From assembly GCA_032718475.1 (NCBI GenBank), contig JAUCBJ010009017.1:18067-82066 (forward strand): a stretch of DNA of 64,000 nucleotides, given 5' to 3'. Below the pieces are notes generated by a model. It was not told the DNA's origin and searched no databases. It saw only the letters and a program-made list of their open reading frames with translations. The DNA comes from Nemertoderma westbladi (Eukaryota > Animalia > Xenacoelomorpha). Made by a program: the position numbers and the translations under genes. Shown here piece by piece: positions 8,730 to 40,723 of this stretch. Position 1 is the first letter of the stretch. Each line of letters opens with the position of its first letter.

Positions 8730-8771
8730 GGTATTGGTTGGTAATTGTGTTGGTAATTGGTATTGGTGAGT

Positions 8772-14123: not shown

Positions 14124-14529
14124 ATAAATATAGGCGTCGCGTAGTTGTTGTAGTACGTAGTTGTTGCTATGCGTGCTCCGCATGCTCCGCGACGCCCGAC
14201 GAACGTGTTACTTATTTTATTTTGTTATTTATGTAAATGTTTTAAGCCGGTAGGCACCTAGTTATATTGTATCTTGGTATCAGATATATAGTGGCTGAAG
14301 TTGGTCGCATGTAAAAATTGACCTCCAGCGGAAATTGGTCGCAAATAACAGCTGAATACGGGCAAAAATTCAACTGTAACCATTGCTATTCACTCTGGTT
14401 TATTGTTTTGGTTAGAATAGCCTGCTACTGTATCCAGCTCATTTCCCTAAGTTGTTAAGTAACGTTGGCGTTGATTGTATTTATTATAATTGTGGAACTT
14501 TGAAAAAAAAATTGTTTATTTTCATTTAG

Positions 14530-16567
14530 GCCGCCGCAAAGGAGAGGAGAAAAAGTGCCGAATCTTTGTTAGCCGAGAAAGTGCCGAATGGTAAGTTCAG
14601 TTGAGAGAAAAATACGTGGGCGTTGCGTTGTGAGGTTCACAGTTTAATCGTAATTTATATTATTTAAATTTTTATATTATTCTTATTTAAAGTTAATTAA
14701 AATAAGCCAGCATATGCTGTGTGCATATATCCTTTGTGGGACCTTTGTACAGGACAATCCAAACAAGCTTAGCTTACGGGTTTATGTTATTTCAACCGCT
14801 GCGCTGGCTTGTTGCCCTCCTGCGGGAAACTGGATAACTGCTGAGTCACTCAAATTATATTTCAGATTTTTGAGAAACCACTTGTGTATCAAGTTTTGTT
14901 GTGTGTTTGTTTTGTTGTTTGTTTTGTTGTGTATCAAGTTTTGTACCGTGGCAACTACCAGACCTATTTACATGGTTCCTATTTACATATAAAATGTGAA
15001 CTTTTCAGGACAAGTGAAGGAATTACAGCGGGAATTAGATGACGTTTCTAGACAACGAGATGAAATGGGGGCTTCTAAGGAAGCGGAGAGAAAGGCGAGA
15101 TCATTGGAAGGCGATATCAACCCGCTTCAAGATGTTAGTTATAGGCCTAATTCTAATAAAAATAAATAAATAATTATCTATATTAAAATATATAACCCCC
15201 AACTCAGGCAACAACTATTACTATCTCAGCTATTGTGCTGCTGCCGTTCCCACACCGTACACCCCAATTTACGTTATTTATTTAAGGTAAGGAACAGGTT
15301 ACTGTGGCACGCTATTCTAACCAAAACAATAAACTAAAGTCAATAGAACACGACCCCCTCCATAATCCATATCTGTAACAAATTATGAAGCGGTGATTGG
15401 TAACCTAATTCAATAACGATTTGTCTTTAATATTATTATCTTGATTTTTTTAATTGAATTAATTTTAATTATTGTGGGTTTTATCGGTTGTTACATCTAC
15501 TACTCTACAGGAACGTAGTGCAACGGAGCAACAACGACAACAAATAGCGGTTGAGGATGAGCGAGACGAGTTGGCGGAAGAGACGGCCGGGATAGCTAGT
15601 AACCGTGGCAACGCACTCGACGAGAAACGCCGACTCGAGTTGGAGAACCACCGACACGAGTTTCAGAAACAAAGACTCGAGTTGGAGAAACGCCGACTCG
15701 AGTCGAAAATACAAAAGTTGGAAAACGATCTGGAGGATGAGCGATCATTTGTATCGTCGGTTCCAAGAAAAGTTAGAATGTTCAAATATATATTTCTATC
15801 TAATAATATTTGTCGCTATCAGTTATTGTTTAAGTTTAGGTAATCCTACATCAAACTTTGTGTTGCAGGTCGAACAAGTCGCAGCAGCAAGTAGATACGC
15901 TGACCACTGCCCTAGCAACCGAACGATCTATCACGCAGAAGCTTGAAAACGACAGACTCATGTTGGAACGACAGATTCGCGACCTCAAGCAGAAGCTGCA
16001 AGACGTCGCGAATCGAGAGCAACGATCCAGGGACTGGAGCAGAAGCTCAACCAGGAAGATGATATGAACAAGGAGCAGGTAGGTGGAGGTGTACAACTCT
16101 TAAACACCTCCCAGTGGGTTGTCGATCACATAAACTGCAGCTGGTTTGGGTTATAAACACCCACAATCTCTCTGGTTGCACGATTTATCAATGAATATAC
16201 GTTAGAGGTTACAGCCCAAACAATTATAACTCTATTGGTTGCAACCCAGATGTGATCCCATTGGTTACTAAAATCCAACCCGGCTGACTTACATATTGTA
16301 GCGACAACTATTATACCTAACAACAGTTACACATACACAGTTTGTTGTTGTTCAATTAGATATCCTAGGTTACTGGATTACAATTAATTTGTTGTTGATT
16401 AGGTTGATATATACAAGCACCGGCTGAAAGCGAAGAAGAGGCAGTTGGAAGAAACAGAGGATGAAACAACTCTACGTAGCAAAGCCAGGTTCCGACGCGA
16501 TCTTCGAGAGATAGAAGACACCCTTGCAGACACCAGCGACGGTGGGGACACATCCGACGGTGACTAA
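14530..16567 (+). pseudogene. Degenerate multi-exon fragment of a non-muscle myosin II heavy chain coiled-coil tail
   Basis: Exon-like blocks 15009-15133 (QVKELQRELDD...EAERKARSLEGD), 15511-~15770 (EDERDELAEE...ALDEKRRLE), 15869-~16080 (QVDTLTTALATERS...LERQIRDLKQKLQ) and ~16417-16567 (RLKAKKRQLEETEDE) follow the order of the MYH9/zipper tail; AG/GT borders; frameshift near 16010; no motor domain. Confidence 0.7.
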
Positions 16568-19210
16568 GATTAGTTGCCTAGCAACCAGACACACAAACTA
16601 TTCCCGCACATGGCTGCTCTTATTCTGCTGAAGCTTCTTCTGCTGATGATAGTATATATTTAATTAATTAAACCATCCTAATATCATATTCCACAAATAG
16701 AATGAAAATCCAGAAATATCCTAGTGTGGTGCCAGTGTTGTTGTAGGTTTAGAAGTCTATTGATTTTCGTCTCCTTTGGTATGAATCACATACGTAAAGG
16801 TTTTGGTTAATAGCTAAAGAAATTATTGTTAAAAACCAATAATTAGCGACCCAATCATTCAATTAAGAGTCCCTATTAGAGCTTGTGACGTCACATCATT
16901 ATGATTTTTTATAAATAGTTTTCATTAATAACATTCACTGGATGTAAAATGTTATTTGTATTGATTTCGGTTTATGATTTAATGATAAATTATCGACTAT
17001 ATTGTGGAATTTGTTTGGTTTCAATTATTTGACGCGATTTTAGGAAATTCAGCGTTTGAATCATTCCAAGATAGACTATTTATCCGTATTAATAATTGTA
17101 TTGGCGTAGAAACTTGTGCTATTTTGTACTATGTAACTTGTACTATGAAACTATGTTATTATAAAATAATTATATTATTATATTTACTATTATATTATTT
17201 ACAGTGATTTGAGTATTATAATATTGGATACAGAATGACGTCACTTTAACTTTTTGTTATGTTTATTGAAGGCGCACATCACAATTGGAAAATAAAAGGT
17301 TGTGGAAATATACATTCTGAAAATCGCGAATTCATACAACAAGGGAGACACCCCCCCCCCCCCCCCATTTTTGCGGTAGCTAATATAATTGTGCTACAGC
17401 CACGTTTTATTTACTACCTCTAACAACTATTATAGTCCAAAATTCAGTGACCCTTGTGGTGTAATAATTAATGTTTGCAAAATGTTACCCATCGGGGACA
17501 CCATTATTGTGTTACCCAGTGTAAAATTTATATGACATATGGTGCATATGTATTACACCGGGGACAGTCTACCAAATTTGTCATTATTGCGCGGTTGACA
17601 CTATTATTGTTGTTACCTAGTATATTTAACTGAGCTGCTGAGTGTTGATGGTGGACCGGACCCCATCTCCATATACGAGCTCTACAAAATGTATTACGAA
17701 CACAATGTGAATACTAGCTCCTATTGTAAGACCGCTATAAGATAGAGTCTTTGAAGGAATGTAATTTGGTGGGGTTGAATTAAAACATTACGGTGCGATA
17801 TACAGAAAAGTGCCTGTCGTATTCGCCCAAATACGGCAGTATAACTCTGGGTTCAGAGAACGTGTACATATTGACAGGCGGCAATCCCCTGATACATTAC
17901 CAAGCATGTGTTTGATATAAATATTAGATTTCTACTTCCATACAATTCTCATTGATTCCGCAGGTCAATGTTATAATTAAAACAGTCAATTTGATATGTT
18001 CTTCCGATTCTATAGGCGGCTTACACACCAACTCCCACCCTACAGCCCTATTTATCCCAATCCATCAATTTTTGTCACAGGTGTGGTCTGAGGATACTAC
18101 ATTATACAAAATGAGTTTTCCATCCTGATAACTCTGTTTAATTTGACAATGTTTATAATAATACCATAAGCATCAAACAGTCTTGCAATGTAATAAATCT
18201 GCCCAAAAACTCATTGAACCGGAAGGACGCCCCGGGCTGACAACATAAATCAAAGCTAAAGTAAACATTATCTCTCCTTCATAGACTTATGTCTTCAATA
18301 TACTACCCAGAGATAGTCAGTCCCAGGCTATACAAAATTAGTTACCTCGGAGACAGCAGCTACTACAGAGTATTACATAACACAAATCCATTTACTATAA
18401 CATTGCCTTTCTTTCCATTTCTTTGTCACATTTTCTCAGTTACCCCCCCCCCCCACACCCCACCCCACCCCTAAGCAGTCTCATCAAACCACCTGAATTA
18501 TTGCAGGAGTTAAAAGTATCACATTGTCCTAATCCAAATCAACTTGAGATACAAAGAACAATGTTTATTTATTTATTTTTCAGATACATCGCCAACACTT
18601 TCTTCTTTATGCTCATATTAAGTATACCGTAAAAATCTTAACCCAGTGGCCCCCAACTGTAAGAAATGTACATACGCCAAATGTCAATATGTGCGCCGCC
18701 TCGTCGGATTCCGAGTGGCCCACACCCGCCCAGGTGTGCCCACTGCGGATCTTCCGTAGTAAACCAATTTGGTCAGGTCAAATCCAAACATTCACTGGAG
18801 ATCACCAAATGGGGCGCTATGTGAAGTACCGTGCAGACACGATGATACAGAAAAGTAGCAAAACTGGATTAATTTTTTTGTAAATAAATAAAGTTTCTCA
18901 AAACCCAACGTTTTATAGGACTATTATTCGATAAAATAAAAGTAAGCGGAAAATATCGCTATTTTCACTCATTATAAATTTAGCGAAATTCAACTATTAT
19001 GTACGAGTGGTTGAGTTTTACACGAGCCGGCAGGTTTTTGGCACGAGCGAAGCGAATGTTAAAATGCCAACGAGATTTTTTTTTTTCAGAAAAAATAACC
19101 ATTCCTATATTGCATGAAGCTTGTTATAGTGATAGTATATATTTAATTTATTAAACCATCCTAATATCATATTCCACAAATAGAATGAAAATCCAGAAAT
19201 ATCCAGAAAT

Positions 19211-20990
19211 AAATTTGTACGTTTTTGTCCGTCTTTTTTGGAAAACTTACTTCCGAAATGTTTAATTCGACAACGCGGGTAGGAATCCACTAATTCTTTT
19301 ATGAAACTCGTAGAAGACCATTGGGGCTACGTTCCTATCGAATGGGGGTACAAAAAATATGTCGGCAATAGGGGCCAAAAAGGGCCAGAATTTGTAAAGT
19401 AGTTTTTATCGAATAATTTTTTATTTTTAACTTTAGTTGGTTAAGGTACATTCTATACAGTCAATATCCATACGGGGAATTCAAATATGCTATCGGTTTT
19501 GCTCCAAGGATGATATTAAAAAAATAAGGGCCAAAATTATAATTTCGCGCTTCAAACTTGCTTCGCGGGAAATCGTCTAGCTCGAAAACTACTTAACTTA
19601 CGGGAGATTTGTTTACACAGACTTATAGTGCGTTAAATTATCTATCTAACAGCGTTAATCACAGCGCCGGAGGTATTATAAAACTGGAGCGGCAGGCGAT
19701 CGTGTGAAATATAATATTTATAAAAAAGGGACGAAAAACGTTTTTTTCTTAATAATCTGCTGTTCTATTATAATTTAGCTCTTTGCGCCTAAACTACCTG
19801 TAAAATGTAGCAAATTAACTCCGCTATCTTTTATCTTAACATATATAATTAAAATAACGAGTTTTAAGGGTCGAAAAATATCGCGTAATTTTGGCCCTTT
19901 TTTTTCATTTTTTTTTGGGGCCAAAAATGACCCCCTCTCAAAAGATAGAAAAAAAAATTACGGCAAAGAATATACAAATTTTATTGAATTTGGACCATCA
20001 GAACCGAAGTTAGAGCGATTTTAGTGAAAAAATAAAAATAATTTTTTAACAAAAAAATAAGAATGGCCAATATTGGATTTCGTACCCACGAACTTAGGTT
20101 TCATTAACATGATTGATAACCACTAGACTACGTGACCAAGTGAATTTGAAATTTTCGAGTGACTATTTTTAAACATCAATAACTTCGGTTCTATTGGGCC
20201 GTTTGATCTGAATCTTTTTTCATTGGATAGAGGATAGATTGTAGTGTGTGAAACTAGGATACAACTTGGGAAAAGACGCATGTGCACTTAGTGCAAAATG
20301 CACTTAAATAGTGGACATTTTTTCGATATTTCAAACACTATTATTTCCAGTTCCATTCATCGTAGAATGTTATTTTTTGGATTAAAATGTAGTTTGGAAT
20401 GATTTCTAACTATAATCGTAACATTTGTTTAACTTTTTATGTCTATAAAGTGACTTAAAATGTCCATGAATATGGTCCAAAATCGCAAATGTCGCGATTT
20501 ATTAAATTGGATTTTTGACACTTTTAGCGACTGACACTTGATCATGCACCATCGTAGATCGGAAGAGAATAGACATAAGTGTGTTAAATAGGAACCACCT
20601 TTAGGATCCGCTAAAGTGCACTTGTGCAAATATGTGTGCAAATGTGCAATTTTTTTTAATAAGGTCAAATGGTGTATTATTGGGTTCTTTTAATATGTTG
20701 TATGGACCTTACTGAGCGCATTAGGAGTATGTGTACAAATAACCGGTCCTTATAAGGGTTCAATTGTATAAATTAATAATAAATAAGGTTGTAATATTCT
20801 AAAAACCAGTGTGATCTTAAATGAACTTTAAACAATAAATAGAAATCAGATAACAAATGGACCACACAATTTATTAAAAAAACTCGCACCTCTTCGGACT
20901 TAATATATGGCTTCAATTTTATTCAACAGTGGATATTTGGGGGAAGTTAGATAAACTGCATTTATGCAGTGAATCTAACTTCCCCCTTCA
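19211..20990. repeat. Copy A of a ~1.8-kb dispersed non-coding repeat (probably a non-autonomous DNA-transposon-like element)
   Basis: Colinear direct repeat of 22173-24003, from AAATTTGTACGTTTTTGTCC to TGCATTTATGCAGTGAATC. Confidence 0.85.
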
Positions 20991-22172
20991 TGATATAATA
21001 TAACAAAGACACACTCTTTGGAGGACCCGTTGTTTACTATGTAGACTTTGTTCAACCTAAACAACTTAAGTCAGATTAACAATATTATCCTGTAAAATTT
21101 CTAAGCAATGACTGGTATGAATAATGCTGATCTTCGAACTATGGTTCTGTAATTAAATTTTATTACTTCAACTTTTATGCGGATTTACCAGTGAAAGAAA
21201 CCTAGAATCCATTATCACAATGTAACAGTATCAATAACCATATCTATTCTATGTAGATCATAAGAGAGACATCCTTGATTCATATATTATAATTTCCGAG
21301 CTGAAATGTTTCGGTGACTATAACTTACAGGCTTCGTATTATGTACAAACGACTGAGTAGTATATATTAATATTAATGGGTTACCGGTATATAGAACGAG
21401 TGTAGACTGGGAGCGAAAATATATTACATACAATTTCGAGTAATATAAAATTAACGAGTCCAGTTCGTCTCCCCTCGTGTCATTCGACGCATACCCCCCC
21501 CCCCCCCCCCCCCCCTCCACACTTTTCCCTTTACCTCGTGGTCTTTCTTTAAGTATAACTTCATTTTGGGTCCACCTTGGTGGGATAAATATTTCTCCAT
21601 TTGACGCAACACCGCCGCGGCCGCTATGAGGGAGGTGAATACCGCGGCCGCTCCTAAAGCCGCAGGCCATCGCTAACTATATAGGTTAACTTGGGATTCT
21701 GGGGGACTTTTCGATGAAGGAACTGACCAAATTTTTTTATTTTCTCACCAGGGGAGCGGCTCGGAATTCTAAGATATTAGCAACTCTAACATTATTAAAT
21801 CTAACCCTTCGACGGACACGGCGGACAAAAATCCGTCATTTTTTCGACAATTTTAAAATTTTTTTAAAAGGCGCTCTACAGTGGCTCGAAAAAACCCTAG
21901 GTTATTGCTTAGCCGACGCCGGGATACGATAGAAGGGATTAATTAGTGAATTCGTTTTTTTTTTCAAAAAAGATTACCACGCCTTTTTTTCGAAAATGTC
22001 CGTCAAAGTTGAAAAAACGGACAAAATGACTTTGCGGGATCCGCTATAACTCGGCTAATATTAATCGTACGGGGACGAAAGTAACGCGGTTGGAAAGGGG
22101 AAGAGTGGTACTACCTTCGTATCGAATGGGAGTAAGATATTTATTAAAATTTCGGGTGGAAAAAGCGGCTGT

Positions 22173-24003
22173 AAATTTGTACGTTTTTGTCCGTCTTTTT
22201 TGGAAAACTTATTTCCGAAATGTTTAATTCGACAACGCGGGTAGGAATCCACTAATTATTTTATGAAACTCGTAGAAGACCATTGGGGCTACGTTCCTAT
22301 CGAATGGGGGTACAAAAAATATGTCGGCAATAGGGGCCAAAAAGGGCCAGAATTTGTAAATAAGTTTTTATCGAATAATTTTTTATTTTTAACTTTAGTT
22401 GGTTAAGGTACATTCTATACAGTCAATATCCATACGGGGAATTCAAATATGCTATCGGTTTTGCTCCAAGGATGATATTAAAAAAATGAGGGCCAAAGTT
22501 ATAATTTCGCGCTTCGCGGGAAATCGTCTAGCTCGAAAACTACTTAACTTACGGGAGATTTGTTTACACAGACAGTGCGTTCAATTATCTATCTAACAGC
22601 GTTAATCACAGCGCCGGAGGTATTATAAAACTGGAGCGGCAGGCGATCGCGTGAAATATAATATTTATAAAAAGGGACGAAAAATTTTTTTTTTTAACAA
22701 ATCGCTATTCCATTATTATTTAGCGTATTGCGCCAAAAGTACCTGTAAAAAGTATCAAATTAACTCCGCTATCTTTTATCTTAACATATATAATTAAAAT
22801 TACGAATTTTAAGGGTCGAAAAACATCGCGTTATTTTGGCCCTTTTCTTTAATTTTTTTGGGGCCAAAAATAACCCCTTCTCAAAAGATTAAGAAAAAAA
22901 TTACGGCAAAGAATATACCAATTTTATTGAATTTGGACCACCAGAACCGAAGTTAGAGCGATTTTAGTGAAAAAATAAAAATAATTTTTTTTGCAAAAAA
23001 ATTAAGAATGGTCAGGTCAATATTGGATTTCGAACCCGCGAACTTAGGTTTCATTAACGTGATTGATAACCACTACACTATGTGACCAAGAGAATTTGAA
23101 ATTTTCGAGTGACTATTTTTAAACATAAATAACTTCGGTTCTACAGGGCCGTTTAATCTGAAACTTTTTTCATTGGATAGAGGATAGATTGTAGTGTGTG
23201 AAATAGGATAAAACTTGGGAAAAGACTTATGTGCACTTAGTGCAAAATGCACTTAAATAGTGAACATTTTTTTTCGATATTTCAAACACTATTATTTCCA
23301 GTTCTATTCATCGTAGAATGTTATTTTTTGGATTAAAATGTAGTTTGGAATGATTTCTAACTATAATCGTAACATTTGTTTAACTTTTTATGTCTATAAA
23401 GTGACTTAAAATGTCCATGAATATGGTCCAAAATCGCAAATCCAGATTTATTAAATTGGATTTTTGACACTTTTAGCGACTGACACTTGATCATACACCA
23501 TCGTAGATCGGTAGATGATAAACATAAGTTTGTTAAATAAGAGCCACCATTACGATCTGCTAAAGTGCATTTGTACAAATAAGTGTGCAAAAGTGCAAAT
23601 TTTTTAATAAGGTCAAATTATATAGTATTGGGTTATTTTCTTTGCAGATCATTTTATTTTCATATTAATATGTTGTTTGAACCTTACTGAGCGCATTAGG
23701 GGATATGCGTACAAATAACCGGCCCTTATGAGGCTTCGATTGGGTAAATTAATAAAATATAAGGTTGTATAGTATAATATTCTAAAAACCAGTGTGATAT
23801 TAAATGCACTTTAAATAATAAATAGAAATCAAATAACAATTGGACCACACAATTAAAAACTCGCACAATTTTGTACTTATTATATCGCTTCAAATTAATT
23901 CAACAGTGGATATTTGGGGGAAGGGGGAAGTTACAGTGTGCATTCGGGGGAAGTTTGGTGAACTGCATTTATGCAGTGAATCCAAACTCCCCCCTTTGAT
24001 ATA
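22173..24003. repeat. Copy B of the ~1.8-kb dispersed repeat
   Basis: Direct repeat of 19211-20990 with scattered substitutions and small indels. Confidence 0.85.
23025..23087 (-). other. tRNA-derived Pol III A-box/B-box module inside the repeat (second copy at 20075-20137); not an intact tRNA
   Basis: Minus strand reads GGTCACATAGTGTAGTGGTTATC...GCGGGTTCGAAATCC; no complete acceptor or anticodon stem. Confidence 0.55.
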
Positions 24004-26342: not shown

Positions 26343-27590
26343 ACCATGGTGTAGGCTACTAAATAACAGGTCCCATGCAGCGAGTGGATTGCTGAAATTA
26401 CTGAATTCAGAATTAGCGGTCTCTTCCCTATTTATGGCACTATTTTCATAATATTTCCTTAGAAACTTCTTTTATGCTACTTGTGTTAGTGTTAGCGTTA
26501 GGTTGATATAATGACTAGGGTCCAACGGTCCATCAGTCCATAGAGATGTAATAAAATGTCTTTCTGGAAGTTTTATCTTATAGTCAGATAGTTGCCAAGG
26601 TAACCGGGTGCAAATTTCAAACTTTGCGCACCTGTCAGCCTGTATTTCAAGGCGACAATGGATTCTTCTTTCCTTGAGATTTGGTAAGTGATTAAAGGAA
26701 ATAAAAGACTATCAAAATATTTTACATTTGAATTTGTTTACATTCCCGTTGCTATGGAAATAAGTATAATGCTGTAATGAAAAATTTGAAAAATTGTCTG
26801 CCAATTCTATAAAACACCATTTTTATTCCACTGTATTCGGTTTGTCAGTCTAAATAATAAGTTAAAATTGCCAACATCTTATTTTATAATTCGTCAATTG
26901 TGAATCATATTTCTAAGAGATGAAGAGTCTAAAAGTCAATATTTGCCAATAAACAGATAAACTAAACTGCCCAATCGGTGAGCAAGACCCGTGATAGCAT
27001 GATTTCAGGATTTTGACATTCCAGAATATTTAATTTCGGTTAGCAATTATTAGAAATAAAGGACAGCCACCAGGCAGCCAGGCGCAGACATGTTTGTTGA
27101 AAATTATATAAGTCATTAAGTAGTAAATAGTAACCCAATTTCTATCTGGCGGTCATAATGCGAAATTCTCGTAATTCCCCGTCACCATGGAAACGGGATT
27201 GAAAACACATTTATGTGTAAAATATTTTGATAGGCCTAGACTTTTATTCCCTTTACTCATATATATAGGCCTACCAAATCTCAAGAACAGAATCCTTTGT
27301 CGTCTTGAATTACAGGCGCTCGAAATTTGAACTTTTGCACCCGGTTACCGTAGCAACTACCAGACTACAAGATAAAAATTCCAGAAAGACATATTATTAC
27401 ATTGCTTTGAGAGTATGAATCCTAGTCATCCTCATCATATCCACCTAACCAAATTAGCACAAGCACATAAGAAGTTTCTAAGGAAATATTATAAAAAAAA
27501 GTGCCATAAACTGATAAATATGGAAAGATCGGCCCACGCTAATTTCAGCAATCCGCTCGCTGCTTGACCTGTTATTTAGTACACCTTGGT
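26343..27590. mobile_element. Foldback/MITE-like non-autonomous element with ~400-bp imperfect terminal inverted repeats, in the RPS29 intron
   Basis: 26343-~26762 is the reverse complement of ~27177-27590 (ACCA[T/A]GGTG...TACTAAATAACAGGTC...GGATTGCTGAAATT); a second copy starts at 57660. Confidence 0.8.
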
Positions 27591-27719: not shown

Positions 27720-27917
27720 AATCTGATAGTACCGGTAGTACCGGTGACTAAATCTGACAGTACCGGTAATACCGGTGACTAATAATCTGACAGTACCCCG
27801 GTACCGGTAGTACCGGTGACTAATAATCTGACAGTACCGGTAGTACCGCAGTACCGGTGACTAATAATCTGACAGTACCCCGGTAGTACCGGTGACTAAA
27901 TCTGACAGTACCGGTAG
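27720..27917. repeat. ~32-35-bp minisatellite (GTACCGGTGACTAATAATCTGACA core), left part
   Basis: Same units resume at 39913 after the LTR element. Confidence 0.9.
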
Positions 27918-29168
27918 TGTAAAAGCTTCTGTGGGATCTAACTGGCCCCTTTTGCTTCGCAATCCAGTTTCCCCCCAGGCGCTGGAATACTCTAAAAAGG
28001 TTCTCTAACTGTATATATATTCCCCTCGCCCGCAAGGTACCGTTACAGGTGTTTTAACGGACATAAAAGTCATTCTGCTATATACGTGTTTTGGCGGACA
28101 TGGTAAGGCAAAAAACCTGTAATGCACCAACTACCTTTTACAGCTTAGCCGTGATGATTCATATTACGACATCTAACAGCTGGTTGCTGACATGGAAACA
28201 GCCATTGGATGCATGGTTCTTTGTTTGGCTTGAGCCAATCAGAGCGATTTTTCCTGTCGACGTGTAGCTTTTCGGTCGATCATAAGGAGAGTGTTGAGTC
28301 TTACTGCTTTACTTGATACTTTGTTGTTATTGCTGTCTAAGCCAGAAACACCGGCCTTTTGGGAAGAACTCTAGTAAAACTGCTTGAATTATCGAAAGTA
28401 TAAACTGTTACCTCACCTAACTAATCTCAATAACTCACTAATTAACATGCTCACTTAATTTAATTGCATTAATCATATTGTTTGTACTGTTATTTTACCG
28501 TCAGTTATTAATTGTACCTATTTGTTGATGGAAATATTGCTCTTTGGATAATACGGATAAATCACCCAAATTCCCAATTTTCTTGATACACTACAGGTTA
28601 GAGAGACCGGCTATACATAACAATTGCGATTTATATTAATGTGGTGTGTATTGAATCCAATGTTATTTAGCAGACCCTACGTGAGTCAATTGTTGCTCTC
28701 TTTATGTGTGATCAAATATACTGACTGTCGGCAGAATAGTGTGTATGATTGTGATTGGTAACAAAGTATTTCCTAAAGAATACGCTTTATACTTCAATCA
28801 TAAGCAGTATCGTTGCGTTTTAGTATAAGTCTTAGTTCTGTTTAAATAGATAAAGCACCACGTCCTAAAGGAACTGTTAATATTTCCCGAAAGCCAATAA
28901 TATCTGTCAGAGATTAATTATTAACGATCTATCGAATAATACAGTAGGTATACACTGCAACCTTACACTGCAATAATAAAATTTAAGCATCCGAATTCAG
29001 CCTCCCGGGTGTAGATCCATCGGGTGAATGATCGCGCATGGGCTGTCTTCGGCTAATGTTTTGCGTATTAGCATAAAATATTGTCGTATGCTAAAGTGGT
29101 TTTAATTAACTAAAAGACATATAAATTTTGGCAGGTTAAACTGCTAAAGGTCTTCAAAAGCGCGAACA
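27918..29168 (+). repeat. 5' LTR
   Basis: Near-identical to 38662-39912 (two differences noticed by eye, at 28139 and 28857); CCAAT near 28235; AATAAA at 28975. Confidence 0.96.
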
Positions 29169-29181
29169 GTAACAGTTTATA
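29169..29181 (+). promoter_or_regulatory. Non-tRNA primer-binding site candidate, complementary to LTR nt 28399-28411
   Basis: GTAACAGTTTATA is the exact reverse complement of TATAAACTGTTAC; no TGG start. Confidence 0.7.
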
Positions 29182-31346
29182 ATCTTATTGCAGTAGGCAA
29201 TAGGGTTGCAAAATACCGTAGTGACTGGTAAAACTGAACCGGTGCTTCTGTAGGTCAGTAGGCCTAACTGTCATCACCGGTACCGGTACTGCTGTACAAG
29301 TACATTTAGTATTATTCGATTTTGATCATTGTATACCGGTAGGCTGTTTAAGAGATTAGGGACTGTACACCCCTTGTTTCTTTTGGAGCTTACTTATTTC
29401 TGTCGGTTTTATTTCCTAGTAAGTTAATATTGAGCTGAAGACGTGTAAGTCTGCTCAGATTGTTCAGATAATTGTAGGCTGAACTGCTGTCTGACTGTTG
29501 TTGAGTTTGGAGAGATTGCGGCGTGTGTAGAGTTTGTCTGATAAAGTGCCGTTAGTAAGTTGGGGCAGCCATAAGCGGTAAGGTCAATCCCCTCTTAAAG
29601 AGTAAGTCGTACTACCGTGTTAGAACGCATACTAACTAACAGTTTCAGAGTCTGCATATACTGTAGTTTATCTAGGCTTGATCGTAGTCTGCCAGTGTTT
29701 CGGCCTGTGTTTGTTTGTGTGGTCTGTTCGGGTACCGTAATAGTTATTACTCAAATATTTGTAAGCTGGATTGTTGTCTAGCTGTTTTTAGGTCTGAAGG
29801 GATTGCTGCGTGTGTAGAGTTGGTCTGATCAAGTGCCGTTAGTAAGTTGGGGCAGCCATAAGCGGTAAGGTCAATCCCCTCTTAAAGAGTAAGTCGTACT
29901 ACCGTGTTAGAACGCATACTAACTAACAGTTTCAGAATCTGCACATACTGTAGTTTGTTTAGGCTTGATAGTAGTCTGCCAGCGTTTTGGTTTGTATTTG
30001 TTTGAGTATTCTGTACGGGTAGCGTAATATTTATTATTCAGAGTTTATGCGATTATTCGCAACATTCATGTCCCCAAGTTTATTCCTACAGTAATTGTGT
30101 TTGTTACACATACCGTTATAGTTAAACTAACCCCGGTACTACATCAGGGCTGCTTGGCGTAGGTAAAGACTGACGACTTTGTGCTTCGGTCACTCCAGCA
30201 GATGCCGTGGTTCTTTTAACTGTTCAAGTATATTTAACTACTGATTATTTGTTATACCGGTACTTGTACCTAATTTAGGGTTTAGTGTACAGTGCTTTCC
30301 GAAGTAATTAGTGTAGGCGGTATATTGTGTTGTAAAGTGGTTGATAGGCACATTCGTTAGCTCTATTAGCTTCTGGGTAGGAACAATCCGTGATACATAA
30401 CGTAGTACCTATAGCGATACGGTTATAGGTCGTCAGGCGGTGGTATTTTCCTATCTGGACAGTACAATATATTTACTACTACTTATTATTTAAATACCGT
30501 AGTACCCTGTCCTTTGTAATAGCCAGAAATCTAACCCTTTGTTGGACTGGTTTGTAGACTTCCTGTAAAATTACCCTAAAAATTTTGTACGTAATATTTT
30601 GTTGTGTTTAATTAGAGAATTAATCTCACCCGTATCGTAAGTAATTTGTAGTATTAAGTAACTTAGGTAAATTAGAATTATCAGTTTTAGTGTCAAATAA
30701 ATAGCACTTCACTTAGAGGCGTTCAGCTTCTGTGTAGTGACTCCCCCAGAAATAATAACATTTATTTCAAATATTGACAAAAACCCATGTAACGGGTATA
30801 TAAATATTATAAATCAACTCAAACGATTTATAAATAGTAGGCCTGTCACACAAAAACTAGGTCTCACTATCAGTTGGACTACTGCTTAAATAACGGTAAT
30901 AAAGTAAGTTAAAGTAACTAAGTAACCCTAAAATATTCAGGAATTCAATTATTCTAAAAATAATTGACATACCGGTACTTACCATAGGCTTATTATATTT
31001 ATCTCTATAAATTTGAGCTGAAATCATACCGGTACTCTGTAATTAATTCTAGTTCATAATTATACTTACATGCTGTAAGTGTAAGCTGTATACCGGTATT
31101 CATTATAGGCCTACTATATATATATATATATTTGTGCTAAAATTATATACCGGTACTCTGTGACAAATCTAGTCTGTAATAATACTTATATATTATAAGC
31201 ATACCGGTATTCTAATATATTGTGTATATATCACGCTACACTGAGTAGCAGTATCGGTAATTAATTATTAGGCTAACAGTGATACTGAATTACTAGACTT
31301 GCTTTAACTGTAATATAGCAGTAGGCATTCGACTGTACAATCAAAC

Positions 31347-34300
31347 ATGGCTGACACAAGGCAAACTCTGTCAGATAGTCTCCTAGAAACAACAGACTGT
31401 TTCTCAGATCAAAGTGTAGAGAATCCCAGACCGAGGTCTGAAACCCCTCATACTGTAAGAAGGGCAACCCCTGCAGTGGTTGTGACAGAACCTAGGTTGG
31501 TAGAAAAGATTTCGCAATTTGCGAAGTTGGTGAGGCGCCGTTGGTCTGCCATAGGCACTCGGGCCCAAGTCGGGCGGGATCAAGAAGAAGCTATAAAACA
31601 GCAGCAACCTCCTAGCCAAGAACCTAGTTCTCAGCGGCCCGATAGCTCCAGTAGTTCGGATACTGTTGAGCGGACGCCCGAGCGCGGAGCGAAGATGGTG
31701 GATACGGTTTATGATGGGCGGCCAGCCTGTGGGGAATCAACCGACGCCACTTCTTCTCAAGTGGAAAGTGAGGTGGAAGGCGAAGTGGAAAGTGAGGTGG
31801 AAAGCAAAGTGGAAAGCGAGGTGGAAAGCGAAGTGGAAAGCGAATTAACATCAGCAGAGAAGCCGCGAACTAGAGACGCTATCGACATTTATTTGTCCGA
31901 CTATCAGCGATTCCTAGGAGACGAAGAGTTGAGGAGACGGCTGTCTGGACTTTCCCCTAATAGTGAAGGAACCAAGCTTGTGTTGGACTCAATCGATGCC
32001 GAAATGTTAGCTGCAAACCAAGCTGAATGTGATGAAAAACTCCGCCTCATTAGAGTCCGAGAAGAACAAATAAAGAAAAGAAGGATAGAGGAACAAAAGG
32101 CGGCGGCTATGGCGGCGGCTATGGCAGATGCAGAAGCAGAAAGAAAAGCAGCAAAGGCGGTGGCTATGGCAGATGCAGAAGCAGAAAGAAAGGCAGCAAA
32201 GGCAGTGGCAGAAGCAGAACGGAGAGCGTCTGAGGAGACTATCCAATTGGAGTTGGAAAATCTGCAAGAGACGCAAGACAGTATAAATAAACAGTTTACT
32301 GCTAATCAAATGCAGATGATGAGTCGATCTACTCCCAAGCGCCAAGGATACACATCATCGGAGGAAGGCGAGACCACCGATCCTGAAGGCGGAGGAAATA
32401 GATCTCGTCTAAGCAGGCGTAGAAAAACATCTCACCATCATAAACTGCCTGATTTGCCCCCAGCTGTCAGAAGACAACTAGCTAGCACAGACTTGAGTAG
32501 TATAGAACCTACAGCCCAAAGTATTAAGGTCCAAAGACTCTCTACAATAGTTGATGAGCCTGAGATAATTAGGCCTGTCGTTCCCAAAGTCACTTCTGTG
32601 TTAGAGACCCCTGTACTTCCAGAGCTTAACTCTAAATTCCCTTTGCATAGTACTACACTGCCTGTACCCGGTGGAACAGTCCAAGAGAATATCCCTGTCC
32701 AGATAGCAGAGAGAGAAATCAAAAATTTGTCTCCCGTCGTCCCGCGTCAGCCCGCTACTATGTTGGCGACTCCCGCTTCAGCGGTTGAGTGGGTGGAAGA
32801 GGGACGGCGGGGGATGAATCTCCTGCTAGGACAGATGCAGGAGACTGTCCACCAACTTAAGGGAACAGTGAGGGAAGGTAGAGCAGAGTTGCAAGAAGTG
32901 CAGCAAAGTATCGCGCTAGAACGCGACAAATTAGTCAATATACAAAAAGGCATACCAATGCCCCCTGTAACATTGTGTCAACCCGTTAGGTCTGAAGTAT
33001 TACATGCGCAAGGTGTGGAGCCTACACGCATCTATGCTGCTAGTGAAGTTGAAACTCCTATAGCAAACCCTGTTGGGGGTGATTATAAACCTGTTATTAA
33101 TGATATTCCCTATAGACCTGATAATGATCCGAGAAATTTATATACCGATAATTCGATATTAAATAACACGATGGTCCAAGAAAGCTTTACGCGTCAGATG
33201 GCTAGAACAGAAGCCCGCCAAGCGGTCAAAGTGGGAGAGATCGTCAAATTCAATGGAGACGAGATGAAATGGTTACCTTTCAACGAATATTACAAAGATA
33301 GCATACAGAACTCTGTACTATCTAACGGAGAGAAACTTAGATTCCTCATCAAGTGCTTGGAAGGACCTCCCAAGTTAATGGCGTTAAAGTTTATTGGACA
33401 TCCAGATGGATTAAGACAAGTTTGGGATACACTAAACATCAGGTATGGTAACAAGGATAACATAGCTAAGTATTTGTATGCAAAATTAGTAGCCCCCCGA
33501 CACTTCCTTAGTAGCGAGATTATAGAGTTTTCCGATGAAATTCAAGAGATCTGTAGACAACTGGACTGGTTAGGTAAGTCGCATGAATATCAGAGTTCCA
33601 TGGTTATTGGAGCCGTAGTCTCTACTTTACCAAAGGGTGGAGTATGTACACGCTGGGACAAGAAAGTGTTGTACATGAATGAACAACAACGACGAAGTCC
33701 TACCATGGCTGATCTCATGTCTTTCTTAGATAGTGAAGTAAAATTACAACTCATAAGGCAGGCCAGAGAGAAAACATCGGAAAATAAGGTAAGTGAGAAA
33801 CCCGATTCTAGGAGAAGGATAATACCAGTGTGTTATACTGACGACGGCGAAAGCCAAGCTTCTCAAGAAGAGGACAGCGGGAAAGACACAGCAAAATCTT
33901 ACTATGACAACAAGACCTATAAAGACGTAAGTAAATACAAGTCTCGAACCAGTGACAGGAGAGAACAGGTAACAACAACTCCTCCTACGTCTCCTAAGAG
34001 AATTCACGGAAGAAAGCCTGAAGAAAGAACGAGAGTGCATAACGTTAACCAAGTTAAGGTGAGTAACATCAAACCAAAATGTGCGCTGTGCGACGGGCCT
34101 CACCGTTTGAGTGCGTGTGCTGAATTTCTAAAGAAATCCCCTGTAGACAGACGTACAGTCCTGTGGAATAAGCGGTTATGCTATAATTGCCTCAGATCAG
34201 GACACCAACGGCGAACCTGTTACTCCGACGCAAAGTGTGCAAAGTGTGGCGCGAAACATCACATTTTGTTACACAGTGAGTTCGAACGAGACAACCCGAG

Positions 34301-35507
34301 TCAGGTAAGTGAGCCCGAACTACATGTCCAATTCAGTGATGTGAACGACACTGACCAAGGTTCTGAGTGGGAAGGATTCTATACAGACGAATTCTCCGAT
34401 GCCAACGAATCCTGTTATCTAATAAATACCACAGTGTATCGAGCACTTACGGATGAAAAGGACACTGACGAGTTTACTCCAACTCCTTTTGACAAACAAC
34501 CATCTTGGAAAGTTCCAACTTCCAACATAGGAATAAGAGAATTTCCTGTAGTGCAAGTTCGAGTTCATGGTCCCAACAAGAGTTACATAGTGAACGCCCT
34601 ACTTGACTCCGGCAGCACAGGAACATTCATCGATCAAGAACTAGCCGAAGATATCTTTGCTGGACAACCCAAGTTCCGGACTAAATTGAATATGTCAGGA
34701 ATTATGCAGGTTTGGAAATCTACCCTAACGGCAGATTACTATGTAGGTGTGTTGTCCACCCCCCAGGATAAGTTAGGAACACAAGGTATAAGGTCAGTAA
34801 AAATGGTGGCTATAAAGAACTTTGCTACTACTCAAGCAGAACCTTATAACTGGGACGAGGACGAGTGCATCCAACATCTTGAGATACCTCGATTCCAAAC
34901 CGATTATCCTGGAGTGCAAATACTCATCGGCCAAAACGCGCATGAGGCGCTCGAGCCATTAGAGAAACGGCCTGCTCAACCACAGCCACTACAAACCTAT
35001 GCGGTAAGAACTAGAGTAGGTTGGTACTTCACTGGCCCTTCCCGTAGAACTCTCAAAGAGAGATTACCTCAACAACAGGTATACCAAGTAAAGGGGGAAG
35101 TGGAGAGCAGTGATGTGGACGACCCAACTGAGGGAACACCATACTCCTCAGATAATGACGATATTAACTCCAATGTAGATCAATGGAGACATTGCCTTGG
35201 GACGATTAATCCAGCCGACATCGCTTCCAGAGGAGCAACTCCTCAAGAACTGATAGATACTCCAGGCTGGTTAGGTGGATCCGACTTCTTAAGTAAAGAA
35301 GAAGAAGAATGGCCTCCTCATCTTACCACGGCGGAGAGTAGACAGGCCAAGGGAGCGGAGAAACTAACACAACCACTCAATCGCCCAGCTAGTCGTTTAT
35401 GTTTACTGGAAAGAGACCGAAAACTGTCCGGAAACTATGGAAGGCAAGATACTCTTCCTACGACTACTTCCCTAATCCGGCAAATATCTAGGGACTCCAT
35501 AACGTGA
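31347..35507 (+). CDS. BEL/Pao Gag-protease polyprotein with RT, most of RNase H and the integrase core deleted in frame
   Basis: DUF1759-like KFNGDEMKWLPF; BEL triple knuckle CALCDGPHRLSAC / CYNCLRSGHQRRTC / CAKCGAKHHILLH; protease ALLDSGS; remnants QWRHCLGTINPADIASRG (RNase H end) and RPASRLCLLE (integrase C-terminus); no YxDD or DDE core. Confidence 0.9.
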   Translation: MADTRQTLSDSLLETTDCFSDQSVENPRPRSETPHTVRRATPAVVVTEPRLVEKISQFAKLVRRRWSAIGTRAQVGRDQEEAIKQQQPPSQEPSSQRPDSSSSSDTVERTPERGAKMVDTVYDGRPACGESTDATSSQVESEVEGEVESEVESKVESEVESEVESELTSAEKPRTRDAIDIYLSDYQRFLGDEELRRRLSGLSPNSEGTKLVLDSIDAEMLAANQAECDEKLRLIRVREEQIKKRRIEEQKAAAMAAAMADAEAERKAAKAVAMADAEAERKAAKAVAEAERRASEETIQLELENLQETQDSINKQFTANQMQMMSRSTPKRQGYTSSEEGETTDPEGGGNRSRLSRRRKTSHHHKLPDLPPAVRRQLASTDLSSIEPTAQSIKVQRLSTIVDEPEIIRPVVPKVTSVLETPVLPELNSKFPLHSTTLPVPGGTVQENIPVQIAEREIKNLSPVVPRQPATMLATPASAVEWVEEGRRGMNLLLGQMQETVHQLKGTVREGRAELQEVQQSIALERDKLVNIQKGIPMPPVTLCQPVRSEVLHAQGVEPTRIYAASEVETPIANPVGGDYKPVINDIPYRPDNDPRNLYTDNSILNNTMVQESFTRQMARTEARQAVKVGEIVKFNGDEMKWLPFNEYYKDSIQNSVLSNGEKLRFLIKCLEGPPKLMALKFIGHPDGLRQVWDTLNIRYGNKDNIAKYLYAKLVAPRHFLSSEIIEFSDEIQEICRQLDWLGKSHEYQSSMVIGAVVSTLPKGGVCTRWDKKVLYMNEQQRRSPTMADLMSFLDSEVKLQLIRQAREKTSENKVSEKPDSRRRIIPVCYTDDGESQASQEEDSGKDTAKSYYDNKTYKDVSKYKSRTSDRREQVTTTPPTSPKRIHGRKPEERTRVHNVNQVKVSNIKPKCALCDGPHRLSACAEFLKKSPVDRRTVLWNKRLCYNCLRSGHQRRTCYSDAKCAKCGAKHHILLHSEFERDNPSQVSEPELHVQFSDVNDTDQGSEWEGFYTDEFSDANESCYLINTTVYRALTDEKDTDEFTPTPFDKQPSWKVPTSNIGIREFPVVQVRVHGPNKSYIVNALLDSGSTGTFIDQELAEDIFAGQPKFRTKLNMSGIMQVWKSTLTADYYVGVLSTPQDKLGTQGIRSVKMVAIKNFATTQAEPYNWDEDECIQHLEIPRFQTDYPGVQILIGQNAHEALEPLEKRPAQPQPLQTYAVRTRVGWYFTGPSRRTLKERLPQQQVYQVKGEVESSDVDDPTEGTPYSSDNDDINSNVDQWRHCLGTINPADIASRGATPQELIDTPGWLGGSDFLSKEEEEWPPHLTTAESRQAKGAEKLTQPLNRPASRLCLLERDRKLSGNYGRQDTLPTTTSLIRQISRDSIT

Positions 35508-37132
35508 TAGCATGTGGAGTGGGCGTGTGACTATATCATTTTATATTTGTTTTTATTTTATATTTATGTATGTATTATTATGTAATTTTATTATAATCGT
35601 TTTCTTTAATTTTTTTTAGTAGAATGTTATTTTAGAGATTATTTAGTAGATTAGTGCAATATATTAGTGTTTATTACGTATGTAATTACTTATAATATAT
35701 ATTTAGTGCGACGGCGAGAAATAATTATTTTTCTCTTTCCTTACTGTCCGTATTATATTATAAATGCGAGACTATAGTAAGATGACATGTCAGTACTTCT
35801 TAAAGTACAATAAAGCCACTACTATATTTAAGTATTATTGGTAGGCAGAGTATTAGGAATGCAAAGTTCAGATCCTCGTGTCTCGGCTAAACCAAGCTCT
35901 GGGTAGACCTTGGAAACGACTTGCCTCTTCACACTGACATTGCTTCGTGCGATATTGCTCTTCTACCTTATTTCAAATAATACATATAGTAGCGTGATGT
36001 CCCTCTAACAGTAGCGTAAAACGCAAATAAATCTGTTAAACCTTTTGACCATCTGTAATTCTAGTCGATTAAGATATCGCGGCACCCACCGATATACTTG
36101 AAAGACAAATTCTAGAATCAGTGGTTAACGTCCCCAGACAAGTTCTGGAATAAATCGGTGCCCATCCTAAATATTAATTTAATATTTATTAAAATCTGTA
36201 AAATCCCGATCCTTCAAAATTTCTAGTCAATTAAGATATCGCAGTATTTACCGATATTCTTAGAAGGACTATTTTATAGAATTGAGGATCCTAAGTCCCC
36301 AGATATGCTCTGGAATAAAATTTGTGTCAATTTAACATCAAATAATAAAATTCACGGGAATAAATTTAAATTCATATTCAAATGAATTTCATAAATTGTC
36401 ATTTTGTGCAATTTATAACATTCCCAAAATTCCAGTAATTAATAGACCATGGGAGCGGAGATTCATATTGAGTGTACTAGAGTGCGAGAATCTCCAACAT
36501 ATAGTCAATAGCCGATAAAATTTATAAAATCATGCATAAAGAGGATATTGACAATTAAAGAATTACTATTAAATAACATCCCAGATCTGTATACATGAGA
36601 ATTGCCCTAATTCTACCGCTAGTTTTCCATAATGTCACCATGGCAACACCCACGCTAGAAGTAGAAGCAAGTTAAAGGAACAATAAAAAGCTTAACCCAT
36701 TGCGAAGCATAAGAGTATACATAACGCACTATTAGTATCCAAGGATACATAGTAATAACGTGACATTCTGGAAGACACTGACTAACGGACAAATGGCATG
36801 CATGTGTGCAGTAAGCAATGATTGTATGGAATTTGTGCGTTTATAGGTGAATGTTACTACTAAAGTGTGTTTACAGTAGCTAATCGCAATTGTAAAGTAG
36901 CCCTAACTCTACCGAGATAACCTCAAGTGGATTCAAGCTTTTGGGACGGACAGTGGTGGGACTTGTGCCGGTTATCGTTGTCGTGCTGTTGCTACATGTT
37001 GGCGTAAACACCGCGACAACGGTACATCGGCGCTGAGAAACCCACTGTCCGGGGGCAAAGCCTAGTAGGCAGCGACGCCCGCTTGCCTAAAATATTAACT
37101 CATATTGATATTAATAAACTCAGATAGCAGAT

Positions 37133-38583
37133 ATGACGGAATTGATAGAAGATGACCTTGGTATCAGGGAGCGATATACTCTACCTTTACAAGCGTTTGT
37201 GGATAGCTTGATACGCGGTGAAGCCGATCCGACTATTACGGAGGACGATGGTCGTTATATCGAACCGCCGATGTCCCAGAAACAACTTACGCGTGAATTG
37301 GACTATAGAAAATTCACCGCTCGCTATACGAATCGTAATGGTACGTATATGGACTTCTTAACTACCGGCCATCCTACCGATTTACATGATACGGACGATG
37401 TATACACCGAAAGGGAAATGGTTCTATTTAAATATCATACCCAGCGGAGTCGTAACGATAAACCGAGAATAGATCACGAAAATTATATTCGTAACAGACT
37501 GGGAAGACGGACCCATATGTTTAGAATCTGAAGAGATTCAGCCCCCCACGTCTCGGAGTAGCGATAGCGACTACATATGGGAATGGTATCAAGGTCAACA
37601 GTGTCTCACTGCGTACGATTATCGCCATGCCAACTATGTTTCTCGGCAACGTTGTCGATTATGCGCATCGAGAGACCATGTTACGCCCATGGACACAAAC
37701 GTCCGCTGTTCCTATTTCCACGAACAACCGACGATGGAAATTTATTGCGCGTATTACAGACTCAATAACTCGCACATTTTTGCGGTTTGCCCTCAATTTA
37801 TGACTCAATGTCACCATTGTCAACTAAAGGGACGCGCCAGTTTCGATTGCCCTTTTTAGTCACGATTTGGAAAGCGTGGATGAAATGATCACACTACGTT
37901 ACATCAGAGCTTGGGAAGCGAACACTGATTTATATTGTGATTCACGCCATCGCTATTATCCTGGACGCGCCTACGAAGGAGTTTATGCGTTCCATCCATA
38001 TTTGTTTGCCTCCGTCGAGCAGAAATCGCGCCTATCAAGTTATGAACTATTGAAGCGCGTTGGAGAATGTATTTCAACCAAATATGTACGCAAATTCCTC
38101 AGGAGCATTAATCCGAGTGACATCAATTCGTATAACTTAATAAACTTTATCCGTCAAGATCCGGCCTATGGAGACTTATTTGTCAACTCACACCCTGAGT
38201 TACAGGAAGTATATCGACGGCCTTACGAGTACAGAGCCCGCGAACGCGAGTTGGAAAGAACCATTAAACCAAGGAAGTTTCTAACTGCCTATGGTCCACC
38301 CACGGCCCTCGTTCAGACCACTCGTAAAGGACCCGTAAGAGCGGCTGTCTTGAAACGAGCTCTCAAAGCCGTTAGACCCCTCTCCCCGGACGTTGATGTC
38401 AATCAACCCGGTACTTCGACCGGCGGATATACCGATCGCAATCCCATACCTTCTGATGCAATCATATTGCACCCTTCACCCAGGAGTTATAGCCCTCCTC
38501 GTAAAGTGGCTCGCCCCAAAGAGAAAAGGACTCTTGCTAGCTTTAAAAAACTGCGTAAACGCCGTCCGCGCAAGAAAGACTAA
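37133..38583 (+). pseudogene. Accessory ORF2 of the BEL element, about 480 codons, with Cys/His knuckles and a basic C-terminus; broken by two frameshifts
   Basis: ORFs 37133-37531 and 37867-38583 are bridged by an open frame (~37475-37856) encoding CRLCASRDH...C, CAYYRLNNSHIFAVC and CHHCQLKGRASFDC; ends KKLRKRRPRKKD. Confidence 0.6.
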
Positions 38584-38661
38584 CTGTTTAGAGTATTTTT
38601 ATATTTTAGAAACTGTGATTTTGTATATTTTATAGACTTAAATCCCATTTTCTGGGAGCGG

Positions 38662-39912
38662 TGTAAAAGCTTCTGTGGGATCTAACTGGCCCCTTTTGCT
38701 TCGCAATCCAGTTTCCCCCCAGGCGCTGGAATACTCTAAAAAGGTTCTCTAACTGTATATATATTCCCCTCGCCCGCAAGGTACCGTTACAGGTGTTTTA
38801 ACGGACATAAAAGTCATTCTGCTATATACGTGTTTTGGCGGACATGGTAAGGCAAAAAACCTGTAATGCACCAACTACCTTTCACAGCTTAGCCGTGATG
38901 ATTCATATTACGACATCTAACAGCTGGTTGCTGACATGGAAACAGCCATTGGATGCATGGTTCTTTGTTTGGCTTGAGCCAATCAGAGCGATTTTTCCTG
39001 TCGACGTGTAGCTTTTCGGTCGATCATAAGGAGAGTGTTGAGTCTTACTGCTTTACTTGATACTTTGTTGTTATTGCTGTCTAAGCCAGAAACACCGGCC
39101 TTTTGGGAAGAACTCTAGTAAAACTGCTTGAATTATCGAAAGTATAAACTGTTACCTCACCTAACTAATCTCAATAACTCACTAATTAACATGCTCACTT
39201 AATTTAATTGCATTAATCATATTGTTTGTACTGTTATTTTACCGTCAGTTATTAATTGTACCTATTTGTTGATGGAAATATTGCTCTTTGGATAATACGG
39301 ATAAATCACCCAAATTCCCAATTTTCTTGATACACTACAGGTTAGAGAGACCGGCTATACATAACAATTGCGATTTATATTAATGTGGTGTGTATTGAAT
39401 CCAATGTTATTTAGCAGACCCTACGTGAGTCAATTGTTGCTCTCTTTATGTGTGATCAAATATACTGACTGTCGGCAGAATAGTGTGTATGATTGTGATT
39501 GGTAACAAAGTATTTCCTAAAGAATACGCTTTATACTTCAATCATAAGCAGTATCGTTGCGTTTTAGTATAAGTCTTAGTTCTGTTTAAATAGATAAAGC
39601 GCCACGTCCTAAAGGAACTGTTAATATTTCCCGAAAGCCAATAATATCTGTCAGAGATTAATTATTAACGATCTATCGAATAATACAGTAGGTATACACT
39701 GCAACCTTACACTGCAATAATAAAATTTAAGCATCCGAATTCAGCCTCCCGGGTGTAGATCCATCGGGTGAATGATCGCGCATGGGCTGTCTTCGGCTAA
39801 TGTTTTGCGTATTAGCATAAAATATTGTCGTATGCTAAAGTGGTTTTAATTAACTAAAAGACATATAAATTTTGGCAGGTTAAACTGCTAAAGGTCTTCA
39901 AAAGCGCGAACA
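38662..39912 (+). repeat. 3' LTR
   Basis: Same length and sequence as the 5' LTR; followed by the TSD GGTAG. Confidence 0.96.
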
Positions 39913-40666
39913 GGTAGTACTGGTGACTAATAATCTGACAGTATCGGTAGTACCGGTGACTAAATCTGACAGTACCGGTAGTACTGGTGACTAATAATCT
40001 GACAGTACCAGGGTAGTACCGGTGACTAATAATCTGACATAACCCCGGTACTACCGTTGACTAATAATCTGACAGTACCGGTAGTACCGGTGACTAAATC
40101 TGACAGTACCGGTAGTACCGGTGACTAAATCTGACAGTACCGGCAGTACTGGTGACTAATAATCTGACAGTACTAGGGTAGTACCGGTGACTAATAATCT
40201 GACAGTACCGGTACCCCGGTAGTACCGGTACCCCGGTAGTACCGGTGACTAATAATCTGACAGTACCGGTACCCCGGTAGTACTGGTGACTAATAATCTG
40301 ACAGTACCCCGGTAGTACCGGTGACTAAATCTGACAGTACCAGCAGTACTGGTGACTAATAATCTGTCAGTACCCCGGTAGTACCGGTGACTAAATCTGA
40401 CAGTACCGGTAGTACTGGTGACTAATAATCTGTCAGTACCCCGGTAGTACCGGTGACTAAATCTGACAGTACCGGTAGTACTGGTGACTAATAATCTGAC
40501 AGTACCCGGCTAGTACCGGTGACTAAATCTGACAGTACCGGTAGTACCGGTGACTAATAATCTGACAGTACCCGGCTAGTACCGGTGACTAAATCTGACA
40601 GTACCGGTAGTACCGGTGACTAATAATCTGAAAGTACCCGGCTAGTACCGGTGACTAAATCTGACA
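39913..40666. repeat. ~32-35-bp minisatellite, right part, ending about 57 nt before the RPS29 acceptor
   Basis: Tandem GGTAGTACCGGTGACTAA(TAA)TCTGACAGTACC variants. Confidence 0.93.
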
Positions 40667-40723
40667 CAGTGCCGGTATAATATTTATATATAATACGCCG
40701 GTATTATTTTTGTTTACTTTTAG

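Follow-up and report, generated by a model that had tools for sequence, protein, structure and literature searches.

Self-priming of reverse transcription has been shown for the retrotransposon Tf1 and is proposed for Tj1, the Tf1/sushi elements, Tcn1 and the plant Copia lineage TAR, according to the passages on priming in PMC4600332, PMC2864245 and PMC6317226. In Tf1 the initial 11 bases pair with the primer site, and the RNase H cut falls between bases 11 and 12, as the priming section of PMC7175516 states, and a passage of PMC10085805 describes a pretzel in which sequences adjoining the primer site pair with the LTR. For the TAR lineage (Houba, Osr-1) self-priming is a prediction, in the part of PMC6317226 that treats primer sites. 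BEL/Pao elements are said to be tRNA-primed, and their replication to be poorly understood (PMC8742986). The ICTV gives the Belpaoviridae an 18-nt site for a host tRNA-Arg or tRNA-Gly (PMC8742986), and a tRNA-Tyr site is reported in a passage on Achilles (PMC4580426). An earlier, sequence-only reading of the locus studied here had called BEL/Pao elements tRNA-primed, in agreement with the ICTV description, and had treated self-priming as a trait of the Tf1/sushi Gypsy elements. It is indeed known there, but that framing omits the prediction for plant Copia TAR elements found in the same part of PMC6317226.

The locus was analysed within a window of 64 kb, i.e. the whole stretch of DNA at hand, and all features of the element and its relatives are given on the forward strand. 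The full element (27918-39912) is a young, non-autonomous BEL/Pao element which has retained gag and protease, while reverse transcriptase (RT) and integrase are gone. Self-comparison delimits a 5' LTR (27918-29168, TGT...ACA) and a 3' LTR (38662-39912) of 1251 bp each, with two differences between them. The element is flanked by a GGTAG target-site duplication (27913-27917, partner copy 39913-39917), and a purine-rich tract (38654-38661) abuts the 3' LTR. Because of the near-identical LTRs, the duplication on both sides and the purine-rich tract, the insertion is considered recent. The 5' LTR's end at 29168 is set by the 3' LTR and the duplication, and thus independently of the pairing motif discussed below.

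The ORF at 31314-35507 encodes a BEL/Pao gag (DUF1759), Cys/His knuckles, an aspartic protease and a short post-RT polyprotein remnant. In Pfam, DUF1759 is matched with an E-value of 4e-12, and the zinc-knuckle and aspartic-protease matches are weak. About 50 amino acids, located several hundred residues past the protease, match the post-RT region of BEL polyproteins, and RT and integrase are absent from this ORF. The Pao domain PF05380 is present in 42 of the 44 homologues of the ORF. In a search of 1.84 billion representative proteins the closest relatives of the element protein are about 30% identical, and no autonomous partner was found among them. The element is a non-autonomous BEL/Pao element: the identity first proposed from the sequence is supported by the DUF1759 match, the PF05380 domain in the homologues and the polyprotein remnant. 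Paired LTRs with TG...CA ends, a target duplication, a purine tract and a BEL-type gag and protease are all present, and the proteins are of the BEL/Pao type, not those of a Ty3/Gypsy chromovirus (Tf1/sushi). Upstream of the 3' LTR are three overlapping extra ORFs (37118-38583; 137, 128 and 251 aa), one of them Cys/His-rich and the last with a basic tail at its end; none matches a Pfam family above the cut-off. The family is abundant in the host reads, with 12,036 contigs of the run X1 placed on 1.65 kb.

The window holds two relatives of the full element. The LTR of a diverged, truncated copy (6461-7721, found by self-comparison, about 75% identical) is a single one, followed by about 1 kb of leader and then by a 24-bp based array that truncates the copy. 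A third LTR (62721-64000, 90% identical) is inserted in a Gypsy pol ORF, where it breaks, at 62721, a Ty3/Gypsy-type gag-pol with RT, RNase H and integrase (58637-62742). It carries the same 13-nt motif as the full copy, at 63224-63236, and its end coincides with the final base of the window (64000), leaving two copies that are informative for both motifs. The leaders of these two copies contain a duplicated 290-bp unit (29464-30040 and 8090-8666), and each unit holds a tiny-intron-like stretch of 41-47 nt (GTAAGT ... TACTAAC ... AG).

Tandem arrays are a prominent part of the surroundings. The full element is inside one (27720-27917 and 39913-40677) and the diverged copy is preceded by a 54-bp array (5938-6460), i.e. 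two of the three LTR starts are in or at arrays, which may reflect a bias of insertion or retention. Large arrays are found at 1-3043 (45-bp units, 68 copies), at 8759-14124 (the 24-bp based array past the diverged copy) and at 41069-57666 (45-bp units, 368 copies). The window also contains a 1.7-kb direct repeat pair with 90% identity (19210-20946 and 22172-23923), an element with long inverted arms (26357-27581) that has a relative near 57.7 kb (57660-58264), and an intronless ORF (3388-4209) with a weak match to the OB-fold of replication protein A (E 0.004). Frameshifted exon-like pieces at 14520-16565, which resemble a myosin heavy-chain tail, have no database match.

The minus-strand primer of an LTR element has to end no more than a few bases from U5, where a full tRNA would require a TGG. 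The TGG-type site had been described as missing, and there is no TGG in the first 57 nt past the 5' LTR of the full copy, nor in the first 60 nt of the diverged copy. Neither copy has the 18-nt site, for the 3' end of a host tRNA, that the ICTV lists as a trait, and no tRNA gene is found in the 64-kb window. A tRNA-Asn half would presumably share just 6 nt with the site. The only long complement of the primer-site position is the element's own LTR. In the full copy the 13 nt at 29169-29181, abutting the LTR end, are the exact reverse complement of 28399-28411 (13 of 13 positions), the candidate self-primer. In the diverged copy the primer-site position, 7722-7732, is also flush with the LTR end and pairs at 11 of 11 positions with the corresponding candidate, 6961-6971. 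Both pairings had been seen in the sequence-only reading and were recovered at the same positions. About 760 nt lie between the two arms, and the element has at least 10 nt complementary to its own LTR within 0-5 nt of the LTR end.

Matches of this length at this position are rare. Anchored reverse-complement matches of at least 13 nt were found at none of 9,450 control positions, and matches of at least 11 nt at 7 of 9,450 and 7 of 11,771. When the LTRs were resampled with their dinucleotide composition, the full-copy match was reached in 0 of 20,000 cases (10 if offsets of 0-5 were allowed) and the 11-nt match of the diverged copy in 18 of 20,000 (85 with offsets of 0-5). The pairing is a real, non-random feature. 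In a control insect BEL element (L003), the sole one with a readable LTR pair among three BEL loci from a scan of prokaryote genomes, there is a TGG at +5 and the self-match is at most 5 nt. This element (L003 9499-15100) is of the insect type, with 173-bp LTRs and a TGG site, and is located in a Wolbachia chromosome assembly, by transfer to the symbiont or by misassembly. No BEL locus came out of the protein-led scans of viral contigs. Two matches of the pattern scan, one in a bacterial coding region of a metagenome contig (L001) and one in a viral contig (L005), share the pattern only and were set aside.

A primer formed at a splice junction is rejected: the match is already contiguous in the DNA, the best junction of the full copy adds 3 nt and uses a GC donor, and no junction reaches 12 nt in the diverged copy. 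A CTTATT word past the primer site was considered as a pairing partner of a trans-spliced leader; it is accounted for by a hairpin formed locally.

The two arms of the pairing have changed together between the copies, as had been noticed before: one C-G pair of the full copy is a U-A pair in the diverged copy, and one A-U pair has been lost from both arms. The outermost pair of the full copy, T28399:A29181, is lost in the diverged copy, which has T6960:T7733; it is the sole unmatched change, and four of the five changed positions are matched. In a crossed test, the site of the full copy matches its own LTR type over 13 nt and the other type over 6 nt, and the site of the diverged copy matches its own type over 11 nt and the other over 8 nt. 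The own duplexes have energies of -13.9 and -10.1 kcal/mol, the crossed ones -8.2 and -8.5 kcal/mol. As background, the two copies differ by 168 substitutions and 63 gap columns, against 569 matches; transitions amount to about 0.12 per site and gap columns to 0.08 per column. By a rough estimate from these rates, two matched events would arise by chance in about 1 of 100 cases or less; the coupled events are two in number and come from two copies. None of the 19 rows of the X1 variant list concerns either the motif or the primer site; because the list is incomplete (it lacks, for example, 28693 and 28857), this is not evidence that the motif is invariant.

The best reading of these observations, and one that we hold to be somewhat probable, is a Tf1-like self-priming from the 5' end of the element RNA; self-priming in any form is likely. 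According to this model transcription would start at about A28400, RNA nucleotides +1 to +12 would anneal to 29169-29180, and minus-strand DNA synthesis would be primed by the first 11-12 nt of the element's own RNA. A cut between 28411 and 28412 would free the 3'-OH, with RT and RNase H presumably supplied in trans by an autonomous relative. The RT would then copy U5 and R back to 28412 and jump to the copy in the 3' LTR. During plus-strand synthesis the primer would be copied as well, rewriting the primer site. Since the primer is proposed to be copied into the site, the two motifs would be kept in step and the match would end at the 5' end of the RNA. The absence of a TGG site and the coupled motifs make the tRNA-independent priming suggested by the sequence-only reading the best explanation, which we infer from two copies.

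A different role for the pairing would be a regulatory RNA structure, i.e. a switch for packaging, translation or the masking of the 5' poly(A) signal, with priming left to an unrecognised host RNA, such as a tRNA half, or to a hairpin as in GalEa. We consider this rather unlikely. In its favour, the region is structured: a hairpin directly 3' of the primer site (29182-29206) is found in both copies. Also, a segment at 28967-28980 overlaps an AATAAA poly(A)-type signal, and its part 28967-28976 can pair with 29185-29194; in several folds this pairing shuts out the motif duplex. The latter pairing is that of the full copy; it is not above chance, and is weak in the diverged copy. Were it to form, it could mask polyadenylation in the 5' LTR only. 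Against the Tf1-like reading, the support from folding varies with the fragment: the pair probability of the motif duplex is 0.92 in 28399-29230 and 0.0 in 28399-29400, and the diverged copy does not exceed 0.3; these values come from a folding program that cannot show the duplex together with the competing helix, as the two cross. Half-tRNA primers exist in Copia lineages, and a hairpin without a primer site exists in fungal GalEa elements, according to passages in PMC6317226 and PMC5445492, respectively.

On the other side, a structural helix need not abut the LTR end, and Rfam has no match at E-values up to 5 in 27900-31400. If host RNAs were the primers, the two copies would need different ones already at the very first base, the core common to both sites being 8 nt. 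The GalEa sites have no LTR complement in the passage that describes them (PMC5445492), but the site of this element has one.

A helix at the LTR end is a point in favour of the Tf1-like reading. In the minimum free energy fold, the LTR end (29160-29168) pairs with 29029-29037 as the 5' arm, and this helix stacks on the primer duplex. The helix is present in both copies, and in the diverged one a U-A pair is replaced on both sides by A-U. On the LTR-end side of this swap, the change of A to T at 29165 accounts for 31% of the X1 depth, and the partner site is absent from the incomplete variant list. A conserved U5 hairpin (29128-29151) is found directly upstream of the LTR end, and more stems are conserved within U5. 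A stem at 28985-29060, in the 3' part of the LTR, is conserved as well, with a change from C-G to U-A on both sides between the copies. By energy, the flanking duplexes are not above chance (reached in 3, 8, 5 and 58 of 60 resamples), and the 3' flank duplex is good in the full copy only.

Self-priming could also take another route, in which the motif is not at the 5' end of the RNA; this we regard as unlikely. In one form transcription starts 60-100 nt upstream and the longer leader is the primer. In the other form the TATAAA at 28399 is a TATA box, the partner of the site is the motif copy in the 3' LTR, and the RNA, circularised, primes after a cut there. In favour of the Tf1-like reading instead, the shared pairing begins at A28400 in the full copy and at A6961 in the diverged one, each preceded by a T, and a pyrimidine-purine step (T|A) is a common form of initiator. 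A28400 would be a plausible RNA start, the base at -1 being free to vary, and from the sequence the expected start appears better placed at A28400 than at 28399. Two putative CCAAT-type boxes (ATTGG and CCAAT, 28204-28239), present in all three LTR variants, are 196 and 165 nt before A28400, which is farther than usual for a start at 28400, and this spacing favours a start further upstream. CA steps about 30 nt downstream of the TATAAA also fit a TATA box, but the diverged copy reads TATAAC, a poor one.

The conservation around the motif can be read in more than one way. A conserved island (28379-28412) ends in the candidate primer and is followed by a hypervariable, G-poor patch (28413-28445). 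The full and the third LTR are identical at 33 of 33 positions over 28379-28411, then at 19 of 34, confirming that the sequence directly 3' of the motif differs, and then again at 91-97%. The contig depth of X1 falls from about 357,000 (28372-28400) to about 11,700 at 28418, with a break near 28410-28414. Under self-priming from the RNA 5' end, the strong-stop DNA would be expected to terminate and jump at this conservation break; a linker under relaxed selection would show the same break. Conservation also extends over the 20 nt upstream of the motif, which have no pairing to the primer site, as would suit an RNA that starts upstream of the motif. Against such an RNA, no poly(A)-type word directly upstream of the motif is conserved in the three LTRs. 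All three retain such words at a distance of 540-580 nt downstream, which places the motif near the start of R. With a long primer, moreover, over-copying in plus-strand synthesis would be expected to lengthen the match, but the match ends at 11-13 nt.

An origin at the DNA level or by chance, i.e. a transcription-factor word occurring in both orientations, an ancient inverted duplication or an AT-rich coincidence, is very unlikely: the motif of the diverged copy is a near-palindrome and the 8-nt core recurs at 8 and 6 places in the window, but the resampled LTRs never gave the full-copy match in 20,000 trials, the matched indel and swap need continued coupling, and the crossed matches (6 and 8 nt) are shorter than the own ones (13 and 11 nt).

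A self-primed BEL/Pao element had been put forward with the remark that no such report was known, and our literature search, which covered openly accessible articles, likewise returned no publication on BEL/Pao self-priming. By term look-up, the Sinbad paper (PMC554778) and a BEL/Pao survey (PMC3118150) gave no text on PBS, priming or tRNA, PMC12440569 gave nothing on primers, and the passages retrieved from PMC5443660, PMC8220671 and PMC3601003 were generic. The locus is most likely the signature of self-priming in BEL/Pao, i.e. a known mechanism in a new setting. What it would add is an animal BEL/Pao lineage that has no tRNA priming and is self-primed over a loop of about 760 nt, in an RT-less family that borrows its machinery and has a hypervariable patch marking the strong-stop jump; we think that this description probably holds.

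If this is true, self-priming exists in all three superfamilies of LTR retrotransposons, and tRNA-independent priming arose, or was kept, in the third of them. It would then bear on whether self-priming is ancestral or convergent, a question discussed in a passage of PMC3601003, and on whether these RNase H domains are in general able to cut an RNA duplex. Elements to which annotation tools assign no primer site would find an explanation as well. The abundance of the family in the host reads makes start-site mapping and strong-stop sequencing practical.

In comparison with known systems, the element agrees with the Belpaoviridae in its LTR-flanked gag-protease with DUF1759, its homologues with PF05380 and the purine tract before the 3' LTR. 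It differs from the ICTV description of this family (PMC8742986), and from Achilles as given in a passage of PMC4580426, in having no tRNA primer site. The GalEa elements of fungi, with their Conserved Hairpin Site, are similar in that a tRNA site is missing and a hairpin adjoins the 5' LTR, and the diverged site studied here is near-palindromic; they differ in that no LTR complement is described for the site in the relevant part of PMC5445492, and the palindrome is lost in our full copy. With the plant TAR lineage the element shares the type of evidence, as it would be selected by the rule of at least 10 bp of complementarity at 0-5 bp past the 5' LTR given in the section of PMC6317226 on primer sites, but it belongs to another superfamily and its host to another kingdom.

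The closest likeness is to the Tf1 group. In Tf1/Tf2/Tj1, Tf1/sushi and Tcn1, as in our element, there is no tRNA site and about 11 nt past the 5' LTR are complementary to a segment of the LTR; a structured U5 and a duplex at the LTR end are also shared, according to the passages on RNA structure in PMC7175516, PMC10085805 and PMC4600332. The helix at the LTR end resembles one of the flanking duplexes of the Tf1 pretzel as described in PMC10085805, and the second duplex is not supported in both copies. The members of that group are Ty3/Gypsy chromoviruses, whereas our element has a BEL/Pao gag and protease and about 760 nt between the arms. It also differs from Tf1 in having no RT and RNase H of its own, and its RNA start and primer cleavage are predicted from the sequence.
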